Of a DNA stretch of 47,870 bases, positions 3,123 through 10,874 are shown piece after piece. The stretch's first letter is position 1. The number at the start of each line of letters is the position of its first letter. The position numbers and the translations under genes are program-made. Under the pieces are notes generated by a model. That model had not been told where the DNA came from. It was given only the letters and a program-made list of their open reading frames with translations, and searched no databases. Source of the DNA: a virus (lineage: Duplodnaviria > Caudoviricetes); the IMG/VR virus record IMGVR_UViG_3300020045_008682, positions 1 to 47,870 of that record. The stretch is one strand, 5' to 3'.

Positions 3123-3605
3123 ATGAGAAAAATAATGTATTTACACGGTTTAGAGAGTTCCAACGTTTGTGATAAAGTTGATTTCTTACGTGAACAAAAT
3201 GAGGTTTTAGCCCCTTCAATTGATTACCGTAAATCAAATATTGAAGAAGAGCTTATGTATATGGTTGAGTCATTTCAACCTGATTTGATTATTGGTTCTT
3301 CAATGGGTGGTTATTGTGGTTTGTTACTTGCCAATCATTATAAAGTTGATTGTTTAGTTTTTAACCCTGCTATTCACTCTCGTCCTATAGAACCCAATTT
3401 AAAATCATTAGTATTAAGTGATATTGATCCTAGTTTTATTCCAGTTGTTGTTTTAGGTATGGAAGACACCATTATTGATCCTGCTAAATCAGAAGATATA
3501 CTTGAACAAGTTGAGTTTCATTGTGATATCGAAAGAGTAGAAGGTTTAGGTCATAGGATTCCGTTTTATGTGTTTGTTGATATTTATAACAAATACGTAA
3601 AATAA
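3123..3605 (+). CDS. YqiA/YcfP-like alpha/beta hydrolase (esterase)
   Basis: YLHG, GSSMGG nucleophile elbow, NPA, D and GH catalytic positions. Confidence 0.85.
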   Translation: MRKIMYLHGLESSNVCDKVDFLREQNEVLAPSIDYRKSNIEEELMYMVESFQPDLIIGSSMGGYCGLLLANHYKVDCLVFNPAIHSRPIEPNLKSLVLSDIDPSFIPVVVLGMEDTIIDPAKSEDILEQVEFHCDIERVEGLGHRIPFYVFVDIYNKYVK

Positions 3606-4165
3606 TGTCTTTCAATTATAAAGCTTACTTAAAAAATAATATCCTATTACAAGAGGAATTTCCTAGAGGAAAATGGGTTGACCTTAGTGATAAGGAAAAA
3701 GAAGAATATGCTAGTGATATTTTTAACCTAATCAACACAGCATATGCGCCTATAGGCGGTAATGTAAATTATAAGAGCGCAGCAGATGTATTAGGTGCGG
3801 AAGCCGATGCTGATTACGAGGTAATTAATATAGACGATGATCCTGAACCCGATGCTTTAAGTGCTTATAAGAAACAACCTGCTGGAAATAAATTAGCCGC
3901 TATTGGACACGATGGGTCTCCTGAGGCAAAATCTAAAGTTATTAATCACTATGCTGATTTGTTAAAGAAAAAAGGATATTATTTAGAGGTATCAGGTAAA
4001 TTAAAGGATATTTTATTAGCTAAAGGAGCACCTGTAGTTACAGATCCTGAATTAATTAAAAAGGTATTAAAAGGTAAAACTATCGAACTAAACGATGATG
4101 GAACATATCAACGTTTTTTAGGTGGTGAAAAACACACCAAAACTTTGCTTGGAAATCCCATTTAG
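3605..4165 (+). CDS. hypothetical protein, possibly late/virion-packaged
   Basis: 186 aa ORF; ATATTTATA motif upstream at ~3580; N-terminus FNYKAYLKNNILLQE resembles those of 35582 and 44846. Confidence 0.6.
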   Translation: MSFNYKAYLKNNILLQEEFPRGKWVDLSDKEKEEYASDIFNLINTAYAPIGGNVNYKSAADVLGAEADADYEVINIDDDPEPDALSAYKKQPAGNKLAAIGHDGSPEAKSKVINHYADLLKKKGYYLEVSGKLKDILLAKGAPVVTDPELIKKVLKGKTIELNDDGTYQRFLGGEKHTKTLLGNPI

Positions 4166-4176
4166 AATGATTCTAG
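4162..4176. promoter_or_regulatory. palindromic operator-like site (copy 2)
   Basis: ttagaatgattctag. Confidence 0.6.
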
Positions 4177-4199
4177 ATGACATTTCCTCTGCAGCAAAT

Positions 4200-4228
4200 T
4201 TGGCTCCCGAGGATACCTTTCGTATATT
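4200..4228 (+). promoter_or_regulatory. early/host-type promoter
   Basis: ttggctcccgaggatacctttcgtatatt. Confidence 0.75.
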
Positions 4229-4261
4229 CATGTCATAGAAAAAAAGATAAAAATAAAAGTT

Positions 4262-5062
4262 ATGCTAAACATTAATCAAGAATTCATTTCAAAAAGTCAG
4301 ATCCGCCAACAAGCCCCTTCAATTTTCACTGCTCAAGGAGCACCTGGAACTAGTGAAAAGTATGCTCACATTCCTACTGATAAAATTATTGACGATATGT
4401 CAGCTTTAGGTTGGGGTGTTGTAGATGCTAAAGAAGTTAAAGCACGTAAAGGTGTTGGTTTCCAAAAGCATTTGGTTGTATTCCGTAATAACGATATTCA
4501 AATCACTGCCGAGGATGGTGATAACGTTTTCCCACAAATCCTATTGACAAATTCTCATGATGGTAAAAATGCATTTACTTTCACTGCTGGTTTGTTCCGT
4601 ATGGTTTGTGAAAATGGTTTGGTTGTATCTTCTCGTGAGTTTGAAAGTATGAAGATCCGTCACTACGGTTATTCATTTGAAGAGTTGCAAAACACTATTA
4701 AGTCAATTGTTGAAAAATTGCCTTTGACAGTTGAATCACTTAATAAATTCCGTTCAGTAGAATTGGGTCAAGAACAAATGCTTGATTTTGCTAAAAAAGC
4801 TCTTGCAACTCGTTTCTCAGAAGATGAGATCGAAAACATCCAAATTGATTTTGAAGATTTGCTTACACCAGTTCGTGAAGCAGATAAAGGAAATGATTTG
4901 TGGTCAGTATATAATGTAGTTCAAGAAAAATTGACTCACGGTTTGTTTAACTACAAATACGGTGTTAAAACTCGTAAAGCTCGTAAAATTAAGAATTTCA
5001 GTCAAGACATGGTTTTGAACGAGAAATTGTATGATTTGGCTCTTGAGTACGTTCCTGCATAA
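4262..5062 (+). CDS. DUF932/DUF945-family protein
   Basis: APSIF, SEKYAHIPT, NSHDG, GLFRMVCENG, LWSVYNVVQE motifs. Confidence 0.85.
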   Translation: MLNINQEFISKSQIRQQAPSIFTAQGAPGTSEKYAHIPTDKIIDDMSALGWGVVDAKEVKARKGVGFQKHLVVFRNNDIQITAEDGDNVFPQILLTNSHDGKNAFTFTAGLFRMVCENGLVVSSREFESMKIRHYGYSFEELQNTIKSIVEKLPLTVESLNKFRSVELGQEQMLDFAKKALATRFSEDEIENIQIDFEDLLTPVREADKGNDLWSVYNVVQEKLTHGLFNYKYGVKTRKARKIKNFSQDMVLNEKLYDLALEYVPA

Positions 5063-5112
5063 GGAATGTACTTAAGCTTGGAAATATAAGGATCTTTTTA
5101 TATATTTATATC

Positions 5113-5304
5113 ATGAACGAATTGGAAGAACAAGCAAGACAAGAGGCAATTTTTAATGCCAAGTGTGATGAAATTTTATCTAAAGCAGATAAATTAGGAT
5201 TACAAGTTGAAGTTGTTTGGTCTGCCTTTAAACATAAAGAACAATTCCGTAATGCTTCATTACTTGAATGCCTACAAGTAGGAGCAGATGAGTGGGATGT
5301 ATAA
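5113..5304 (+). CDS. hypothetical protein
   Basis: 63 aa ORF after promoter at 5078-5106. Confidence 0.6.
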   Translation: MNELEEQARQEAIFNAKCDEILSKADKLGLQVEVVWSAFKHKEQFRNASLLECLQVGADEWDV

Positions 5305-5309
5305 AAAAT

Positions 5310-5394
5310 GCTGTTGTGGTGGAATGGTAGACACGAAGGACTTAAAATCCTTTGGGACGTAAGTCTCGTGCCGGTTCGAGTCCGGCCAGCAGTA
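5310..5394 (+). tRNA. tRNA-Leu(UAA)
   Basis: cloverleaf; loop CT-TAA-AA, long variable arm, GGTTCGAGTCC. Confidence 0.92.
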
Positions 5395-5426
5395 CAAAAA
5401 TTAAAAAACTATATATTTATATCAAA

Positions 5427-5609
5427 ATGAAAAAAGTATTATTTATCGCTGCCTTGATTACTTTGGCTTCTTGCTCAAGTGAAACATCAACTTCTTCTTC
5501 AGATTCAGTTTGCACTGATTCAGTTTGTGTAGACACTACTAATATCGATTCTTTGATCGATAGCGTAGATGCTCATGCAGACACTTTGCATAGCCTGTTG
5601 AAGAAGTAA
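5427..5609 (+). CDS. small lipoprotein (60 aa)
   Basis: MKKVLFIAALITLAS-C lipobox; Ser/Thr/Asp-rich mature part. Confidence 0.75.
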   Translation: MKKVLFIAALITLASCSSETSTSSSDSVCTDSVCVDTTNIDSLIDSVDAHADTLHSLLKK

Positions 5610-5616
5610 TCTTCAA

Positions 5617-5702
5617 GCCGAGATCGCATAGCGGTTGATTGCACCTGACTTGTAATCAGGTTCCGTAAGGACACGCCAGTTCGAATCTGGCTCTCGGCTC
5701 CA
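5617..5702 (+). tRNA. tRNA-Thr(UGU) with atypical long variable arm
   Basis: acceptor GCCGAGA/TCTCGGC-T-CCA, stem CCTGA/TCAGG, loop CT-TGT-AA, variable hairpin TCC-GTAA-GGA. Confidence 0.85.
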
Positions 5703-5761
5703 AAATGTAGTCTTTGATTAACTCCCCGACCCAATTAAATGTTATTCGAAGGCTACTCCCC

Positions 5762-5836
5762 GCGGGTGTCGTATAATGGTTATTACACTAGCCTTCCAAG
5801 CCTGTGATGTCAGTTCGATTCTGTCCACCCGCTCCA
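5762..5836 (+). tRNA. tRNA-Gly(UCC), mismatched anticodon and T stems
   Basis: GCGGGTG/CACCCGC-T-CCA, loop CT-TCC-AA. Confidence 0.75.
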
Positions 5837-5871
5837 AAAAGAAAAAAAAAGAAAAAGAAATCAAAGTAAAT

Positions 5872-5900
5872 TTGGTATTTTGAGATCTTGTTCATATATT
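5872..5900 (+). promoter_or_regulatory. promoter of leader peptide / tRNA operon
   Basis: ttggtattttgagatcttgttcatatatt matches the promoter motif and spacing. Confidence 0.7.
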
Positions 5901-5926
5901 TATGACATATTAAAACACATTAAAAC

Positions 5927-6022
5927 ATGAAACATTGTATATCATATCATTTTAGTCTTAAAGCCGCTTGGATGAATCGTCCGGTGTCTGAGGATATTAA
6001 ATTGATAGGGCTTATGATGTGA
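5927..6022 (+). CDS. putative attenuator leader peptide MKHCISYHFSLKAAWMNRPVSEDIKLIGLMM
   Basis: 31-codon ORF with A-rich start (attaaaacATG) between promoter and terminator; 18 different amino acids. Confidence 0.7.
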   Translation: MKHCISYHFSLKAAWMNRPVSEDIKLIGLMM

Positions 6023-6063
6023 TGTTTTTAAAGACATATTGAAACACAAAGTAAGCCCGATTC
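6004..6063 (+). promoter_or_regulatory. putative antiterminator helix
   Basis: GGGCTTAT(6008-15)/GTAAGCCC(6051-58), TGTG/CACA, ATGTTT-TTAA-AGACAT; sequesters the terminator left arm. Confidence 0.65.
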
Positions 6064-6082
6064 ACAAGATCGGGCATTTTTT
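6055..6082 (+). terminator. intrinsic terminator (attenuator) before tRNA block
   Basis: GCCCGAT-tcacaag-ATCGGGC followed by ATTTTTT. Confidence 0.75.
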
Positions 6083-6084
6083 AT

Positions 6085-6104
6085 GTTCTTTGACGTATGA
6101 GAAA
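6085..6104 (+). promoter_or_regulatory. boxA-like element, copy 1
   Basis: gttctttgacgtatgagaaa, identical to 7635-7654; resembles rrn boxA TGCTCTTTAACA. Confidence 0.6.
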
Positions 6105-6108
6105 AATT

Positions 6109-6181
6109 GCGACGGTAGCAAAGATGGTCAATGCACTGGACTGAAAATCCAGCCATGCAGGTTCGAGTCCTGCCCGTCGCA
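6109..6181 (+). tRNA. tRNA-Phe(GAA)
   Basis: GCGACGG/CCGTCGC, loop CT-GAA-AA. Confidence 0.92.
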
Positions 6182-6190
6182 CAAATACAC

Positions 6191-6264
6191 AGCGTAGTAG
6201 AGGAGTGGTTTATCTCATCTGCTTTGGGAGTAGAGGTACGTCGGTTCGAATCCGACCTACGCTA
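6191..6264 (+). tRNA. tRNA-Pro(UGG)
   Basis: AGCGTAG/CTACGCT, loop TT-TGG-GA. Confidence 0.88.
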
Positions 6265-6270
6265 CAAAAT

Positions 6271-6344
6271 GACCTTATAGCTCAATTGGCTAGAGCATCG
6301 TGCTTTTAACACGGGGGTTTCGAGTTCGAGTCTCGATGGGGTCA
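6271..6344 (+). tRNA. tRNA-Lys(UUU)
   Basis: GACCTTA/TGGGGTC, loop CT-TTT-AA. Confidence 0.92.
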
Positions 6345-6350
6345 CAATTT

Positions 6351-6426
6351 CTTTCCTTCGCTTAGTTGGTTTTAAAGCGTCTCTTTTACACGGAGAAGAT
6401 CGTTGGTTCGAATCCAGCAGGAAAGA
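6351..6426 (+). tRNA. tRNA-Val(UAC)
   Basis: CTTTCCT/AGGAAAG, loop TT-TAC-AC. Confidence 0.88.
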
Positions 6427-6435
6427 CAAATAAAT

Positions 6436-6517
6436 GCCAGTATCGCATAGCGGCAATTGCTGGGGACTGTAAATCCCCTCTCTTCGGAGTTCGTAGGTTC
6501 GAGTCCTGCTGCTGGCA
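6436..6517 (+). tRNA. tRNA-Tyr(GUA)
   Basis: GCCAGTA/TGCTGGC, loop CT-GTA-AA, long variable arm. Confidence 0.92.
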
Positions 6518-6524
6518 CTAAAAT

Positions 6525-6598
6525 GGAGATATAGCTCAATTGGTTAGAGCGCCTGCCTGATACGCATGAGGTTATAGGTTCGAGTCCTATTTTCTCCA
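6525..6598 (+). tRNA. tRNA-Ile(GAU)
   Basis: GGAGATA/TTTCTCC, loop CT-GAT-AC. Confidence 0.85.
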
Positions 6599-6607
6599 CA
6601 ATTAAAT

Positions 6608-6680
6608 GGTGTATGTAACTCAGAGGAAGAGTACTCGCTTGTGACGCGAGAAGCCGGGATTTCGAAACTCCTCATACACC
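6608..6680 (+). tRNA. tRNA-His(GUG)
   Basis: G-1:C73 pair, GTGTATG/CATACAC, loop TT-GTG-AC. Confidence 0.85.
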
Positions 6681-6693
6681 CAAACCGTCGGAA

Positions 6694-6740
6694 GCCTATC
6701 ATGACCCGAGTAGGATGAAAACGCGGATATCGGGTCTTTT
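6694..6740 (+). ncRNA. candidate H-type pseudoknot between tRNAs
   Basis: CCTAT/GTAGG and GACCCGA/TCGGGTC helices interleave. Confidence 0.4.
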
Positions 6741-6824
6741 GGAGAGTAATACAGTAAGGTTGCTGTCACCGCCTGCTAAGCGAGTGGTACTTTCGAGTAT
6801 GAATTTCGATTATTCTGCTCTCCG
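6741..6824 (+). tRNA. tRNA-Ser(GCU), 8/4 cloverleaf
   Basis: 8-bp acceptor GGAGAGTA/TGCTCTCC-G, 4-bp T stem GAAT/ATTC, loop CT-GCT-AA, long variable arm. Confidence 0.8.
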
Positions 6825-6855
6825 CTATGTAAAAAATACTTATAAAAAACAGATT

Positions 6856-7308
6856 ATGAACTTCAGGACCCTATCAAACAGAAAAACAGTTGACTTAGTT
6901 GACTATGTAAAAGCGTATTTAAACGCGAATCCCAACACCGAATTGTTAGTTGGGTGCGACTCGCAAAACTATGCGTATAATACAACATATGCAACGGTAG
7001 TCGCACTTTATAAGCCGAAGGGTGGTGCGCACGTTTTATTTAATAAAGAGGTTTTACCTTTAGAAAAAGTAAGACAAGTGCGTTTAATGAATGAGGTTTG
7101 GAAATCAGTTGAAACAGCAGAAATACTTAAAAACGCTGGTTTACCTCAAGTTAAATACATCGATATAGATGTTAACCCTGATAAAAGATATAAATCAAAC
7201 GAAGTTCTAAGAGCGGCAGTTGGTTTAGTTGAAGGTATGGGTTACAAAGTTAGATACAAATCATTAGGTGTTATGGCAACATACGCTGCAGATATGTTAG
7301 TAAAATAA
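6856..7308 (+). CDS. RNase H-like YkuK/DUF458-family protein
   Basis: LLVGCDSQ, RLMNEVWKS, IDIDVN, A-T-YAAD motifs; true start likely 6856 because the longer ORF overlaps tRNA-Ser. Confidence 0.8.
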   Translation: MNFRTLSNRKTVDLVDYVKAYLNANPNTELLVGCDSQNYAYNTTYATVVALYKPKGGAHVLFNKEVLPLEKVRQVRLMNEVWKSVETAEILKNAGLPQVKYIDIDVNPDKRYKSNEVLRAAVGLVEGMGYKVRYKSLGVMATYAADMLVK

Positions 7309-7313
7309 CAAAT

Positions 7314-7386
7314 TGTTCTTTCGTCCAACGGATTAGGACACTTCGCTACGAACGAGGAAATAGGGGTTCGAATCCCTTAAGAACAA
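7314..7386 (+). tRNA. tRNA-Arg(ACG)
   Basis: TGTTCTT/AAGAACA, loop CT-ACG-AA. Confidence 0.88.
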
Positions 7387-7392
7387 CTAAAA

Positions 7393-7462
7393 GTTCAGGT
7401 TGGTTTAGGAAGCCGGATGGTCTGCAAAACCATTGAAGTAGGTTCGATTCCTACCTTGAACT
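7393..7462 (+). tRNA. tRNA-Cys(GCA)
   Basis: GTTCAGG/CTTGAAC-T (U73), loop CT-GCA-AA; short atypical D arm. Confidence 0.82.
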
Positions 7463-7469
7463 CAAATAC

Positions 7470-7543
7470 GCGAGTGTGGTGAAATGGTATCATGCCGGTC
7501 TCCAAAACCGTTGTTGAGGGTTCGAATCCTTCCACTCGTGCCA
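7470..7543 (+). tRNA. tRNA-Trp(CCA)
   Basis: GCGAGTG/CACTCGT-G-CCA, loop CT-CCA-AA. Confidence 0.9.
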
Positions 7544-7544
7544 A

Positions 7545-7559
7545 TTAGAATGATTCTAA
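7545..7559. promoter_or_regulatory. palindromic operator-like site (copy 3, perfect)
   Basis: TTAGAAT-G-ATTCTAA. Confidence 0.65.
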
Positions 7560-7582
7560 ATGAATTTTTCTTTTAAAATAGG

Positions 7583-7611
7583 TTGGAATTACGAGATATT
7601 GTTCGTATATT
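7583..7611 (+). promoter_or_regulatory. promoter of second tRNA/ncRNA block
   Basis: ttggaattacgagatattgttcgtatatt. Confidence 0.75.
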
Positions 7612-7634
7612 TACACCATAATAAGAATTAGAAA

Positions 7635-7654
7635 GTTCTTTGACGTATGAGAAA
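7635..7654 (+). promoter_or_regulatory. boxA-like element, copy 2
   Basis: exact 20-nt repeat of 6085-6104 just before the first tRNA of the block. Confidence 0.6.
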
Positions 7655-7660
7655 TTAAAT

Positions 7661-7741
7661 ACCCTGGTGGTGGAATGGTAGACACGCCGGTCTTAGAAAC
7701 CGGTGCTTAAACGCATGCGAGTTCGAGTCTCGCCCTCGGTA
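7661..7741 (+). tRNA. tRNA-Leu(UAG), two acceptor-stem mismatches
   Basis: loop CT-TAG-AA, Leu D arm, variable arm; ACCCTGG/CCTCGGT. Confidence 0.8.
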
Positions 7742-7746
7742 CAAAT

Positions 7747-7828
7747 GGTTGGTCACTGTAAATGGCTTCGCAGTGGGACGATATGTAAGTAGAAATACTT
7801 TAAATGGGTTCAAGACCCATACCAACCT
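7747..7828 (+). ncRNA. tRNA-like RNA without an anticodon arm
   Basis: acceptor GGTTGGT/ACCAACC, T arm ATGGG-TTCAAGA-CCCAT, CACTG/CAGTG and AAGTA-GAAA-TACTT hairpins. Confidence 0.6.
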
Positions 7829-7835
7829 CAAATAT

Positions 7836-7954
7836 AGTCAGGTGGCGGAATGGTAGACGCTGTGTATGCTCGATTAGACACCAGTACGAGGCAATGAAAA
7901 TCTTGCACGTAGGGCTTAGAAAACTGGTTACAGGTTCGGATCCTGTCCTGACTA
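7836..7954 (+). ncRNA. tRNA-Leu-shell RNA, copy 1
   Basis: AGTCAGG-TGGCGGAATGGTAGACGC ... ACAGGTTCGGATCCTGT-CCTGACT-A with ~70-nt structured insert. Confidence 0.7.
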
Positions 7955-7958
7955 CAAA

Positions 7959-8022
7959 GCATAAGTTCCCGAATCTTGATGCAAAGAATGGGTAAATCGG
8001 TGACAGCTCGGAAAGTACGAGC
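7959..8022 (+). ncRNA. candidate small structured RNA
   Basis: GCAT-AAG/CTT-G-ATGC stem, possible CCGA/TCGG pseudoknot, terminal GCTCG-gaaagta-CGAGC hairpin. Confidence 0.4.
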
Positions 8023-8027
8023 AATAT

Positions 8028-8133
8028 AGTCAGGTGGCGGAAGCTATCGGTAGAGTGATGATTGATTGGAAGACATTAAATTGACACCCACTCAATATGT
8101 AGCTTAATGCGGGTTCGAATCCCGTCCTGATTA
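8028..8133 (+). ncRNA. tRNA-Leu-shell RNA, copy 2
   Basis: AGTCAGG-TGGCGG ... GCGGGTTCGAATCCCGT-CCTGATT-A; insert AAGCTA/TAGCTT, GAGTG/CACTC. Confidence 0.65.
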
Positions 8134-8138
8134 CAAAT

Positions 8139-8242
8139 TCATTCTTAGTGTTATATGGTAAAACACGTTGACTCTTATATCGCCTGGTTAGTACTGACCC
8201 GAATATAAGGTGAGTAAGTTGGTTCGATTCCAACAGAATGGA
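8139..8242 (+). ncRNA. tRNA-like RNA with elongated anticodon arm
   Basis: TCATTCT/AGAATGG-A, D arm GTGT/ACAC, T arm GTTGG-TTCGATT-CCAAC; ~50-nt hairpin capped by a GTAC tetraloop. Confidence 0.62.
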
Positions 8243-8249
8243 CAAATAC

Positions 8250-8324
8250 GCCTTCATAGCTCAGTGGTAGAGCAAGCGGCTGTTAACCGCTCGGTCGTAG
8301 GTTCGAATCCTGCTGTGGGCGCCA
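8250..8324 (+). tRNA. tRNA-Asn(GUU)
   Basis: loop CT-GTT-AA, G73-CCA. Confidence 0.93.
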
Positions 8325-8332
8325 AAATAATT

Positions 8333-8404
8333 GCTCCTATCGACAAGCGGTTAAGTCATGTCCCTTTCACGGACAAGTCACGGGTTCGAATCCCGTTGGG
8401 AGTA
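8333..8404 (+). tRNA. tRNA-Glu(UUC)
   Basis: GCTCCTA/TGGGAGT, loop CT-TTC-AC. Confidence 0.92.
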
Positions 8405-8413
8405 CAAATAACT

Positions 8414-8488
8414 AGCGGGAAACTAGAGCTGGTGCACTGACGAGTCTCATAAGCTCGGACTAGGTGGGTTCGATTCCCACTCCCGCTA
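8414..8488 (+). tRNA. tRNA-Met(CAU), initiator or elongator unclear
   Basis: AGCGGGA/TCCCGCT, loop CT-CAT-AA; atypical D arm. Confidence 0.78.
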
Positions 8489-8489
8489 C

Positions 8490-8600
8490 AAAATGTTTGG
8501 TGAAAATAAGGCTTTTGTTTCTATATAGGAAAGGTGACTAAGAAACGGAAACTAGAGTCTTTTAGGGGTACAATCGCTAGTATAGCCCTAACAACATTTT
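8490..8600 (+). ncRNA. candidate multi-helix ncRNA
   Basis: closing AAAATGTT/AACATTTT; AGGCTTT/AGAGTCT, GTTTCT/AGAAAC, TTAGGG/CCCTAA helices. Confidence 0.45.
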
Positions 8601-8605
8601 AAAAC

Positions 8606-8705
8606 GTGTTGTTCCTTTGAGAAAGGAAATATAAAGATGAGTGGCATTACTTGAATTATGGAAAACATAATCGTACACTACAACACTAAGGATTTCTCAC
8701 CCTTA
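8606..8705 (+). ncRNA. candidate kissing-loop ncRNA
   Basis: GTGTTG/CAACAC closing stem; TTCCTT-TGAGA-AAGGAA loop complementary to TCTCA in TAAGG/CCTTA hairpin. Confidence 0.55.
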
Positions 8706-8708
8706 TCT

Positions 8709-8779
8709 TACCCTCTCGTCTAACGGCAGGACAAGTGGTTTTGGGCCACTGAATCGGAGTTCGAATCTCTGGGGGGTAA
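8709..8779 (+). tRNA. tRNA-Gln(UUG)
   Basis: TACCCTC/GGGGGTA, loop TT-TTG-GG. Confidence 0.88.
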
Positions 8780-8780
8780 C

Positions 8781-8887
8781 AAAATAGATACCTTTGAATA
8801 TGCTTCGATTGAAGCACTAGACAGGAACGTAGAAGCGGGAGGATGAATAGCACAGGCAGGCCTCCAACGTTGTGCAAAGTCTATTTT
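8781..8887 (+). ncRNA. candidate rod-like ncRNA
   Basis: AAAATAGA/TCTATTTT, CTTTG/CAAAG, TGCTTC-GATT-GAAGCA, AACGT/ACGTT, GGAGG/CCTCC. Confidence 0.5.
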
Positions 8888-8891
8888 AATT

Positions 8892-8964
8892 GGGCTGTTG
8901 GTATAGTTGGCTAACACGATTGCCTTGCACGCAATAGTCCCCAGTTCGAATCTGGGACGGTCCA
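8892..8964 (+). tRNA. tRNA-Ala(UGC)
   Basis: G3:U70 pair, loop CT-TGC-AC. Confidence 0.92.
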
Positions 8965-8967
8965 CAA

Positions 8968-9178
8968 TGAGTAAGAGATACTCAGCAGTCTTTCATCCAA
9001 GACTCATTTAACAATGGATGGGGTTAAAAAACGCCTCCCAAAGGCAATCGGTTCGGAATAAAACAGCATCAGACTCGATGACTGCCGACGTATAGAGTTG
9101 ACTTTTTCAAGGAGTAAGATCCGCAGGGTTGCAAACAGAAAACCGGGAATATCTAATCATCAGGAATCTCATGATGGT
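8968..9178 (+). ncRNA. large pseudoknotted ncRNA (possibly manA-like motif)
   Basis: TGAGTA-AGAGA-TACTCA; AGTCTT-TCATCC-AAGACT loop pairs GGATG (9016); 3' ATCATCA-GGAATCTCA-TGATGGT loop pairs GAGA; family name is a tentative recollection. Confidence 0.55.
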
Positions 9179-9185
9179 GTAATTC

Positions 9186-9260
9186 GGTCTATTAGTGTAG
9201 TGGTTAACACGCCTCACTGTCTATGAGGTAGCCTCGGTTCGAATCCGTGATAGACCGCCA
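9186..9260 (+). tRNA. tRNA-Asp(GUC)
   Basis: GGTCTAT/ATAGACC-G-CCA, loop CT-GTC-TA. Confidence 0.92.
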
Positions 9261-9315
9261 ACAGCTTAAATGTTGTGCAGGAGTACCCGATCTCCGATAG
9301 TCAAACAAAGGGGTT

Positions 9316-9476
9316 AGTCAGGTGGCGGAATTGGTATACGCTGACGTTAAGGGCTTAGAGATATGATAAGTAACGAAAGTTCCCCTTCCTTGAACGTCTG
9401 TCCGATGATTAAATCGGGCTGTGTGATGTAAAGCGCACGGATGCAATCAATACAGGTTCGAATCCTGTCCTGACTA
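9316..9476 (+). ncRNA. tRNA-Leu-shell RNA, copy 3
   Basis: AGTCAGG-TGGCGGAATTGGTATACGC ... ACAGGTTCGAATCCTGT-CCTGACT-A with ~110-nt multi-hairpin insert. Confidence 0.7.
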
Positions 9477-9491
9477 CTAAAAATTAAAAAT

Positions 9492-9662
9492 ATGAAAGAA
9501 AAGTTATTAAAAGATTTACCAATCTACCTTAACGGGTTTGCTGTAGGACTGTTGTTTTTTTCTATATCTAATATCCAAGTAATTGATATTTGTATGTTTA
9601 TTTTATCTGGTGTAACTTTCTTTTGGTACGGTAAAACAAAAAACAACATAATACAAAAGTAG
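9492..9662 (+). CDS. small membrane protein (56 aa)
   Basis: MKEKLLKDLPIYLNGFAVGLLFFSISNIQVIDICMFILSGVTFFWYGK..., two hydrophobic segments; not in ORF track. Confidence 0.55.
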   Translation: MKEKLLKDLPIYLNGFAVGLLFFSISNIQVIDICMFILSGVTFFWYGKTKNNIIQK

Positions 9663-9676
9663 AAATAGAACAAAAC

Positions 9677-9764
9677 AGTCAGGTGGCGGAATTGGTAGAC
9701 GCCCTGTTTCTAGACGATGGCCGAAAGCAAGATTTCGGTACAGGTTCAAATCCTGTCCTGACTA
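9677..9764 (+). ncRNA. tRNA-Leu-shell RNA, copy 4 (tRNA-sized, distorted anticodon arm)
   Basis: same shell; CCTGTTTCTAGACGATGG arm, CCGAAA/TTTCGG variable arm. Confidence 0.68.
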
Positions 9765-9767
9765 CAA

Positions 9768-9890
9768 AAGAAAAGCAGTTAAGCTGTAATTGAGAGGTAC
9801 AGTGTTTTAAATACCGAAAAAGGGTTAGTAGTAGGTAGGCGTCACTCATTGCACTCAATCAGTAACCCTGAAAGACCCAAAGCTTTTCTT
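9768..9890 (+). ncRNA. candidate pseudoknotted ncRNA
   Basis: AAGAAAAGC/GCTTTTCTT closing stem; CTGTA-ATTGAGAGG-TACAG loop pairs CTCAAT inside the AGGGTTA/TAACCCT arm. Confidence 0.55.
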
Positions 9891-9895
9891 ATTAC

Positions 9896-9983
9896 GGAAG
9901 TTTGGCAGAGTTGGCCGATTGCGCTAGTCTTGAAAACTAGAGATGTCGAAAGGCATCCGGGGGTTCGAATCCCTCAGCTTCCG
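9896..9983 (+). tRNA. tRNA-Ser(UGA)
   Basis: GGAAGTT/AGCTTCC-G, loop CT-TGA-AA, long variable arm. Confidence 0.93.
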
Positions 9984-9990
9984 CAAATTT

Positions 9991-10062
9991 GCCTCTATAG
10001 TTAAATGGATATAACAGGAATCTTCTAAGTTCTAGTTCGTGGTTCGATTCCACGTGGAGGTA
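9991..10062 (+). tRNA. tRNA-Arg(UCU)
   Basis: GCCTCTA/TGGAGGT, loop CT-TCT-AA. Confidence 0.9.
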
Positions 10063-10117
10063 CAAAAAATTTCTCATACAGCTTGGATATATAAAAAAAC
10101 GTTATTATATTGATATT

Positions 10118-10555
10118 ATGAATTTGACAAAAGCACTAAAACACAAAAAGAAGCTTGTTAAACAGGCAGATGAAGCGTTTATGCGTTTCCAAAGGTACAA
10201 TTCTCAAGTTAAAGAGAATGTAGAAAAAGGTTACGATCCCGAAGCCGCTTATAACAATTGGATTAGGTTAACAAATGAGTTGATTACTCTAAAAACTAAA
10301 ATCCATAACGCAAACGCTCCTATTGCAAATAGAATTTTCCGTTTGGGTGAATTGAAGAATTTGGTTTCTCGTTTACGTAATGTTGAAACTAAAAAAGGAC
10401 TTGTTAGAGAGTATCGTTCATCAGATTCTACTCCAGTTGAATATGTAGCTTACATGGATTTGTTTAATAAAGATAATCAAATTTTCAATTGGGAACAAGA
10501 AATTGAGTCCATCCAAGAAGAAATTGAGGCATTTAATGCCATCACAAAGATATAA
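10118..10555 (+). CDS. coiled-coil protein, DIP1984/DUF6847-like
   Basis: MNLTKALKHKK...LKTKIHNAN...IQEEIEAFNAITKI pattern; own promoter at 10083-10111. Confidence 0.6.
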   Translation: MNLTKALKHKKKLVKQADEAFMRFQRYNSQVKENVEKGYDPEAAYNNWIRLTNELITLKTKIHNANAPIANRIFRLGELKNLVSRLRNVETKKGLVREYRSSDSTPVEYVAYMDLFNKDNQIFNWEQEIESIQEEIEAFNAITKI

Positions 10556-10564
10556 CCAATTTAA

Positions 10565-10760
10565 AGGGTAAGATTAGATTAGTAGCGCCTTGTACGAATC
10601 TGCTTGCGGATTTATACAAATACGCAGATAGGAAACTATCTATATAAGACTGATGCTTAGATATTGATTTTGATTTTGTGCCTTAAGATTTAAAATTCAA
10701 AATTTAAAAGAAGGAAAACTCAAATCTTAAAACTTTTCAGCGAACATTTAATTTTACTCT
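10565..10760 (+). ncRNA. structured RNA with heptamer repeats downstream of the DIP1984-like gene
   Basis: 15-bp closing helix AGGGTAAGATTAGAT/ATTTAATTTTACTCT, two inner hairpins, repeats ttaagat/ttaaaat/tcaaaat/ttaaaag/tcaaatc/ttaaaac. Confidence 0.55.
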
Positions 10761-10773
10761 ACTTTGGTTTTTT

Positions 10774-10847
10774 GGACCTTTAGCTCAGTTGGTTAGAGCA
10801 GATCACTCATAATGATAAGGTCACAGGTTCAAGTCCTGTAGGGTCCA
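10774..10847 (+). tRNA. tRNA(CAU), probably Ile2 (lysidine); Met possible
   Basis: GGACCTT/AGGGTCC-A, TAGCTCAGTTGGTTAGAGC, loop CT-CAT-AA. Confidence 0.85.
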
Positions 10848-10874
10848 CAACACTTAGGAGTATATTTATAGAAG

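Follow-up and report, generated by a model that had tools for sequence, protein, structure and literature searches.

A predicted ribosome-controlled attenuator with a broad-composition leader ahead of a phage tRNA array

What phages gain from their tRNA arrays has been debated for a long time, with codon compensation, host tRNA decay and defence evasion as the answers under discussion. Ribosome-mediated attenuation by leader peptides, on the other side, is a familiar feature of amino-acid operons (trpL, hisL, leuL and pheL, and the multivalent thrL and ilvL). PMC10274678 summarises these operon attenuators, and PMC9723704 reports leader attenuation inferred upstream of amino-acid operons in Flavobacterium psychrophilum. 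The locus described here, from a phage sequence of 47,870 nucleotides (the window, meaning the whole stretch of DNA analysed), resembles them in its short leader, its predicted 1:2, 2:3 and 3:4 helices, its intrinsic terminator and a choice of codons whose reading depends on what the downstream genes supply. It differs in that the targets are phage tRNA genes and not enzymes, in that the leader uses almost every kind of codon once or twice in place of single-codon runs, and in that a boxA-like site stands behind the terminator.

Attenuation by an upstream ORF (uORF) of broad composition is described for whiB7/wblC of mycobacteria, where the uORF holds 19 of the 20 amino acids and its composition sets the response; one Trp codon is enough for Trp sensing, and knock-down of tRNAs and synthetases induces the system (PMC10274678). 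The phage locus shares with whiB7 transcription attenuation by a uORF of this kind, a likeness drawn here without a claim of homology: going by the same text, the whiB7 uORF is chromosomal, controls a transcription factor, is longer and is enriched in Ala, whereas the phage leader packs 18–20 amino acids into about 30 codons and its output would be tRNA.

Regulated tRNA arrays and anti-defence tRNAs are known as well. The trn array of Anabaena PCC 7120 has spread horizontally and is induced under translational stress; unlike the switch proposed here, its control is ascribed to promoter repression by a labile protein, and neither ‘attenuat-’ nor ‘leader’ appears in the text of PMC8421152. The tRNA-Lys of T5 counters PARIS (PMC11464382), the tRNA-Tyr of a T5-like phage counters retron-Eco7 and a tRNA-Lys counters PrrC170 (PMC11555353). 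What these cases have in common with the present one is that tRNA supply, including its level, can decide an infection; they differ in being explained by a resistant tRNA sequence or a strong promoter, and ‘attenuat-’ is absent from both texts. In rRNA operons, boxA serves antitermination through NusB–S10 (PMC10931766), and the phage site is the same short motif heading an untranslated RNA. Unlike the rRNA boxA, it lies right behind an attenuator and would act only on escaping transcripts. In the literature covered (titles and abstracts, subscription papers being mostly outside it), control of tRNA genes, or of a phage array, by a leader attenuator was not found. As far as these sources go, attenuation with tRNA genes as the target would be new, and broad sensing by one uORF (whiB7) and stress-induced tRNA arrays (Anabaena) are already known.

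Organisation of the tRNA region

Three promoter-like sites of this kind (Table 1) split the tRNA region, and a leader with a terminator is found at the middle one only, both in the window and in the near-complete relatives G001 and G003. From this site the order is leader, terminator, boxA-like site and tRNA genes.

Table 1. Positions of the promoter, leader, switch and tRNA features in the window.
Feature	Positions	Strand	Remarks
Upstream unit, outside the switch	5078–5836	+	Promoter-like site, tRNA-Leu, -Thr, -Gly
Promoter-like site	5871–5902	+	Bacteroidetes −33/−7 type: TTTG at 5871–5874, TATATTTA at 5895–5902; 7/8 match to TAnnTTTG; activity predicted
5′ leader, short and A-rich	5907–5926	+	No Shine–Dalgarno sequence; A at −3, −12 and −13
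Strand 1 (start region, codons 1–5)	5922–5939	+	Predicted to pair with 6013–6028 in the absence of a ribosome
Leader ORF	5927–6022	+	31 codons, MKHCISYHFSLKAAWMNRPVSEDIKLIGLMM; 18 amino-acid types, 21/24 decoding classes
Strand 2 (codons 28–31, stop and next bases)	6008–6027	+	5′ side of the predicted antiterminator
Strand 3	6032–6062	+	3′ side of the antiterminator; overlaps the terminator left arm at 6055–6058
Intrinsic terminator-like hairpin and T run	6055–6082	+	Hairpin 6055–6075, T run to 6082; by sequence only
boxA-like motif GTTCTTTGAC	6085–6094	+	Directly 3′ of the T run, 14 nt before tRNA-Phe
First tRNA block	6109–7543	+	Phe, Pro, Lys, Val, Tyr, Ile, His, Ser-GCT, [RNase H-like ORF 6856–7308], Arg-ACG, Cys, Trp
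Second promoter-like site and second boxA-like motif	7583–7644	+	Motif at 7635; no leader, no terminator
Second tRNA block	7661–10848	+	Leu, Asn, Glu, Met, Gln, Ala, Asp, Leu, Ser, Arg, Met

A preliminary description of this DNA had placed a promoter at 5872–5900. A promoter-like site is indeed present; the E. coli-type reading was rejected because the Bacteroidetes −33/−7 type fits better. The −33/−7 motif recurs at 5078, at 7583 and in relatives, and its fit to the consensus, with the placement at −12 to −5 given in PMC6847099 and PMC9723704, predicts a transcription start at about 5907. The A at −3 is shared by 30 of 35 distinct tRNA-adjacent leaders; the determinants used for comparison are those in PMC6847099. 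From the promoter fit together with the A-rich 20 bases before the ATG, lacking a Shine–Dalgarno sequence, we infer a host among the Bacteroidota.

The leader ORF was found where the preliminary description had put it, with 18 of the 20 amino acids and without Gln and Thr, and every codon that had been listed as readable by one of the 11 tRNAs of the following block is in it. There is no run or strong enrichment of one amino acid of the trpL or hisL type in this leader, none of the 18 types in 31 codons being dominant, and a Pfam search with the peptide gave no match. The 11 tRNAs themselves lie between the terminator and the next promoter, ten of them called by ARAGORN at default settings and Ser-GCT (6741–6825) only at a lowered threshold. 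Within this block the RNase H-like ORF belongs to PF04308. Twelve relatives have it at the corresponding position, and it would come under the same control as the tRNAs. The tRNA at the place of the Ile-GAT of the window (after Tyr) is called as Ser-TGA in the relative L054/L006, possibly through a one-base change in the anticodon loop.

The second block is probably also reached by read-through from the leader, to judge by the sequence: no conserved terminator was found between the two blocks in the window, G001 or G003, and the weak hairpins at 7034 and 9103 of the window have no counterpart in G001 or G003. Four elements in the second block (7835–7956, 8027–8135, 9315–9478 and 9676–9766) have in common a tRNA-like acceptor stem, the start of a D-arm and a T-arm, with middles so unequal that the overall lengths range from 91 to 164 nt. 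ARAGORN and Rfam call only the one at 9676–9766 (Leu-TAG); the four are possibly tRNA mimics or intron-bearing tRNAs.

The motif GTTCTTTGAC, which the preliminary description had missed at both 6085 and 7635, we take to be a putative boxA site, on the strength of its position and of the boxA consensus. The same motif occurs in ten of 16 rRNA leaders, in all eight 16S–23S spacers and nowhere inside 16S genes in a sample of cellular genomes. The sample comprised 21 loci in genomes from the phylum of an Ignavibacteriales genome, none of them the known host; five leaders were too short to be counted and 13 spacers were not located.

The predicted switch

An intrinsic terminator had been described at 6055–6082, and a hairpin with a T run is located there by sequence; a scan of the + strand from 3500 to 10000 found it as the sole terminator-like site. 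The antiterminator pairings proposed with it do fold (6008–6015 with 6051–6058, 6018–6021 with 6045–6048 and 6022–6027 with 6032–6037), with a predicted energy of −17.7 kcal/mol versus −13.2 kcal/mol for the terminator. At the level of sequence the locus thus has what defines the attenuator class, namely a short ORF after a promoter, a terminator after the ORF and a predicted antiterminator overlapping that terminator. Rfam covariance models run on 5850–6108 at E values of up to 1 gave no match to T-boxes, riboswitches or amino-acid leaders, and at the gathering score Rfam reports tRNAs only.

Folding with and without a ribosome placed on the leader supports two mutually exclusive structures: the antiterminator is predicted to exclude the terminator until the ribosome reaches codon 25. 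In the first model, in which the full-length RNA is folded with the RNA behind the ribosome blocked, the probability of the terminator is at most 0.38 with the A site at codons 4–22, about 0.5 at codons 23–24 and 0.97–0.98 from codon 25. In the second, which folds the pre-decision transcript ending inside the left arm of the terminator, upstream RNA holds this arm with a probability of at least 0.9 at codons 2–24 and of less than 0.1 from codon 25; the same step between codons 24 and 25 appears in this fold in all eight other close family members tested. A third model applies only the footprint of the ribosome to the full-length equilibrium, so that RNA may re-pair around it. In this case the window forms its terminator again once the ribosome stands at about codon 15 or later, leaving only codons 4–14 or so to sense; in most members of the close family this happens at codons 12–16. 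The predicted sensing window is thus codons 2–24 or approximately 4–14, depending on the model.

On the narrower of these, only stalls at codons 4–14 or so (Cys, Ile, Ser, Tyr, His/Gln, Phe, Leu, Lys and Ala) would open the switch, and the rest of the ORF would be kept for RNA structure. Besides the footprint-only fold, this reading can draw on the Trp and Pro codons of the leader, whose conservation may be structural because both sit in a small hairpin of the fold. We consider it unlikely, given that in the pre-decision fold the antiterminator persists up to codon 24 and that codons 15–24 bring in eight new amino acids in ten codons (P = 0.002, with the boundary taken from folding); another ribosome that initiates on the leader would moreover cover strand 1. 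The accrual of new amino acids ends at the predicted boundary of the switch, and Gly (codon 28) sits in pairing strand 2, outside the stall-sensing part in either folding model.

With no ribosome on the RNA, the fold gives the terminator at full length and the antiterminator in the pre-decision transcript. The protector helix 1:2 is conserved, and the default of an untranslated transcript differs between these two folds.

Conservation and codon content of the leaders

A search with a neighbouring protein as query gave 15 loci, of which eight have the same leader, four have a more distant leader behind a GOLLD-type RNA and three are unrelated. Rfam was run on two of the four GOLLD-linked loci; in these (L009, 2689–3103, and L011, 2503–2918) the leader is separated from the promoter by the GOLLD RNA, a large non-coding RNA that may share one transcript with it. 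The preliminary description had made conservation of the ORF and helices in relatives a check on its proposal; the ORF and the three helices are kept in 14 close relatives (with the window, the 15 sequences of family A), the layout being kept in distant ones; the distant families have the same layout and other peptides. Among the 15 family-A sequences the 12 pairs of the antiterminator are formed in 178 of 179 cells (99.4%), one pair occurring as U-G, U-A and C-G. All 120 terminator cells are paired, a single compensatory change turning G-C into A-U. The eight pairs of the 1:2 helix are formed in 114 of 120 cells (95%); two U-G/G-U pairs become U-A/G-C in three sequences and one end pair is broken in six. 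Covariation in this close set is weak and not significant: in the two tests 131 and 37 out of 500 shuffles score as high as the real sequences, and a change of both partners is seen in a single pair.

The leader frame is open in all 14 distinct family-A members and its indels are whole codons. The number of amino acids is 18 in the window, 19 in nine members and 20 in four (mean 19.2), and 21–23 of the 24 decoding classes are present, against a mean of 15.5 in coding windows. Phe, Ala and Arg shift position in L024 and L062, and the set stays complete. Fifteen random substitutions retain at least 19 amino acids in 4% of trials, a figure to be read with the family members as related sequences and not as six independent tests. 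The tRNA positions (Thr upstream, Gln behind the second promoter) had been offered as the explanation of the two residues missing from the window; Gln is present in 13 of 14 family-A leaders and Thr in four of 14, and this account of the two gaps is therefore removed. Taken alone, the leader of the window is less telling: at least 18 amino-acid types are found in 187 of 11,834 equal windows of the proteins of the phage and in 1,066 of 20,000 dinucleotide shuffles, and its 31-codon diversity by itself is therefore only modestly unusual (p = 0.016–0.05). The 17 types in codons 2–23 are matched in seven of 12,178 protein windows and 113 of 20,000 shuffles.

A scan blind to ORFs and tRNAs was made with a pattern of terminator plus boxA only, which fixes AGCCC, over viral contigs (48 loci) and metagenomes (59 loci), giving 72 matches after deduplication and with the window included. 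A tRNA lies within 100 bases of 49 of these. An ORF of 20–45 codons ending 15–45 nt before the stem is present in 47 of the 49, which are dominated by a few related families, versus five of the 23 other matches, and at 784 of 8,332 random positions (about 9%). The two exceptions are a contig cut 98 bases upstream and a locus whose leader and terminator stand further upstream, ahead of the preceding tRNA. Pairing between the end of the ORF and the terminator arm is stronger than in shuffled sequences in 32 of 44 tRNA-adjacent matches versus four of 20 others, and this pairing is built from different letters in unrelated families. Applied to 185,579 cellular genomes, the same terminator–boxA pattern matched three times, in no case close to a tRNA, a result that holds for this one sequence pattern and not for such switches in cells generally.

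These counts bear on an alternative in which the hairpin, as a leaky constitutive terminator or a processing signal, holds tRNA at a constant level, and the ORF is either a small gene of the ordinary kind or a side effect of conserved RNA structure. The second block, with its own promoter and no switch, would suit it, as would the modest diversity of the window taken alone and the family with leaders beginning MKNMN…, which in all eight rows combines a diverse leader and a terminator with an antiterminator that was not detected in the pairing and folding tests. The fixed distance of the ORF in 47 of 49 cases, the pairing of ORF ends with terminator arms in unrelated sequences and an ORF composition that follows the array (below) speak against it, and we regard it as very improbable.

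In a marine and lake family (L027, L030, L044, L050, L057, L063, L064 and L092) a leader of 18–19 amino acids and a strong terminator precede the tRNA array; the predicted antiterminator is weak and some members have a tRNA with a CTA anticodon upstream. In L071 (about 1020–1170) the terminator–boxA pattern stands behind a leader with a Thr run (MLNISTSQATTTTTTKPLMAGSFA), with no tRNA found nearby; by its sequence the unit resembles a threonine attenuator of the classical kind with a boxA behind it. One contig, L072, has two near-identical promoter–leader–terminator units 1 kb apart (about 2400–2550 and 3440–3590), the second of which precedes Glu, Gly, Gly, Arg and Arg tRNAs.

The composition of a leader was compared with its array by a match score, the fraction of its sensing codons for which its own array supplies a tRNA. 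Over 15 unrelated families, with representatives picked by hand and most arrays cut by the end of the locus, the match is 0.59 versus 0.41 ± 0.03, and none of 100,000 permutations is as high (p = 1e-5). Small arrays illustrate this: leader MMFNINKPKNRNPRIPRGLVVI precedes Pro, Asn, Lys, Ile, Lys and Arg tRNAs, MYIVRQNPNNPNQQPRIKDSLGWESTY precedes Asn, Gln, Pro, Asn and Gln tRNAs, and MKKLLDILSILAAEQLWADEDRLCLVG precedes Asp, Glu, Leu, Ala and Trp tRNAs. Across families, no significant correlation was found between the diversity of the leader and the breadth of its array (rho 0.40, p 0.14). The sequence comparison argues that the codon content of the leaders is what is selected. For the class of 15 families the control codons are matched to the array; in the family of the window their coverage is broad. 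The match of the window's leader to its own block is 0.68, inside the range of foreign leaders (mean 0.58, maximum 0.74), so this leader is broad rather than block-specific, and it also encodes Leu, Asn, Glu, Met, Ala and Asp, amino acids with tRNAs in the part of the array beyond the second promoter. Of the earlier interpretation, a translation-coupled terminator/antiterminator switch with a diverse, conserved leader is supported by comparison and folding; the idea that the leader mirrors the first 11 tRNAs specifically is not.

Composition also weighs on a further alternative, in which the leader is a general check of translation coupling or an arrest-peptide device, responding to antibiotics, shut-off, infection stage or a ligand of the nascent chain, with codon identity incidental. 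Three related leader families have a W-x(2-3)-P-V/E-x-E/K-D pattern in common, any elongation block would flip the predicted switch and, in the pre-decision fold, an untranslated transcript may also read through. Against these points, the compositions of leaders follow their own arrays, and in family A residues move while the set is kept. Unrelated leaders have no common motif and several lack Trp, on which ground a universal Trp arrest motif was rejected. We judge this alternative improbable and continue with the reading that codon identity matters.

Among annotated phages, blastn returned tRNA matches only and tblastn with the leader two matches at chance level. Judged by its primase, the nearest phage in culture is Flavobacterium phage immuto (48.5% identity), which has DUF932 and baseplate genes ahead of the primase on the same strand, as in the window; it has three Rfam tRNA matches, before which no leader–terminator was seen. 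In Kehishuvirus tikkala no terminator precedes the tRNA array in the 15 kb examined. The layout, without boxA, is present in two of three annotated Bacteroidota phage records examined (Gundel_1 and Lak-B1). In the cultured Tenacibaculum phage Gundel_1 (MT732474.1) a −7 box, an unannotated leader MKTKLYSYSCFSSWFKNRAG and a terminator at record position 73025 (−16.3 kcal/mol) precede Tyr, Trp, Phe, Ser, Cys and Ser tRNAs, of which Tyr and Cys were assigned by eye from the anticodon loop, and the leader is rich in Tyr, Ser, Cys, Phe and Trp. Its left arm is predicted to be held upstream with a probability of 0.6–0.7 at codons 4–17 and of 0 near the stop; the full-length equilibrium fold gives the terminator at all ribosome positions. 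The −7 box ends five bases before the ATG (L173, 4641–4762; MT732474.1, 72937 onward), so the transcript seems, from its sequence, to be leaderless. The Tyr and Trp tRNAs right behind the terminator are unannotated in the record, and the isolation paper mentions only ten tRNA genes (PMC8776804). In Lak-B1, which is assembled and not cultured, a leader rich in His, Pro, Cys, Gly and Met stands before His, Pro, Arg, Arg, Gly, Gly, Cys and Met tRNAs. Four of the 24 RNA runs listed, all of them assembled contigs (best share 0.36), were compared with the locus. One contig of a relative of the window, from run X8, spans promoter, leader, terminator and first tRNAs; such a contig shows neither strand nor ends and may be DNA, and it counts neither for nor against the switch.

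Proposed mechanism and its meaning

Taking the sequence and the folding models together, we hold with confidence that the locus encodes a ribosome-controlled transcription attenuator of some form, and we think it probable that this attenuator admits polymerase into the tRNA array when the decoding of almost any codon is slow. Polymerase would start near 5907, and a ribosome would load on the leader and follow. A ribosome past codon 24 in time would cover strand 2, the terminator would form and transcription would end near 6080. One held at codons 2–24 would leave strand 2 free to capture the left arm of the terminator before the right arm is made. A shortage of charged, intact tRNA (by starvation, decay of host or phage tRNA or anticodon nucleases) or another elongation block would in this way lead to read-through. 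The escaping polymerase would load rRNA-type antitermination factors at boxA and cross some 4.8 kb of mostly untranslated RNA. The leader would test decoding in general on behalf of the whole array and would not reflect the first 11 tRNAs in particular. The output of the array would refill the tRNA pool that is sensed, closing a negative feedback loop. Translation of the leader, coupling in the host, induction, use of boxA and feedback are steps that this model supposes.

Starvation, loss of host tRNA in the infected cell, a nuclease of a defence system and antibiotics are all possible triggers. Counter-defence is, on our analysis, a plausible purpose among several, because PMC11464382 and PMC11555353 show that the sequence and level of a phage tRNA can defeat tRNA nucleases; as the purpose of this switch we entertain it tentatively, leaning slightly against it. 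With similar reserve, the loci can be pictured as a phage family of tRNA-supply thermostats, in which a test gene of about 30 codons, covering almost all decoding classes, reads the whole tRNA pool of the host and opens the array when any tRNA is cut or uncharged, as an inducible answer to tRNA-destroying defences. We find this picture possible and somewhat doubtful; were it true, the leader before any phage array would be a readable list of the tRNA shortages its phage has met.

A related switch in the cultured phage Gundel_1 makes the attenuator class testable. If the reading is true, attenuation would extend from enzyme operons to tRNA genes and to phages, and a compact reporter of tRNA damage in Bacteroidota would be at hand. 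If arrays are switched on by slow decoding, the supply of phage tRNA would be driven by demand, and the leader would tell which shortages matter.
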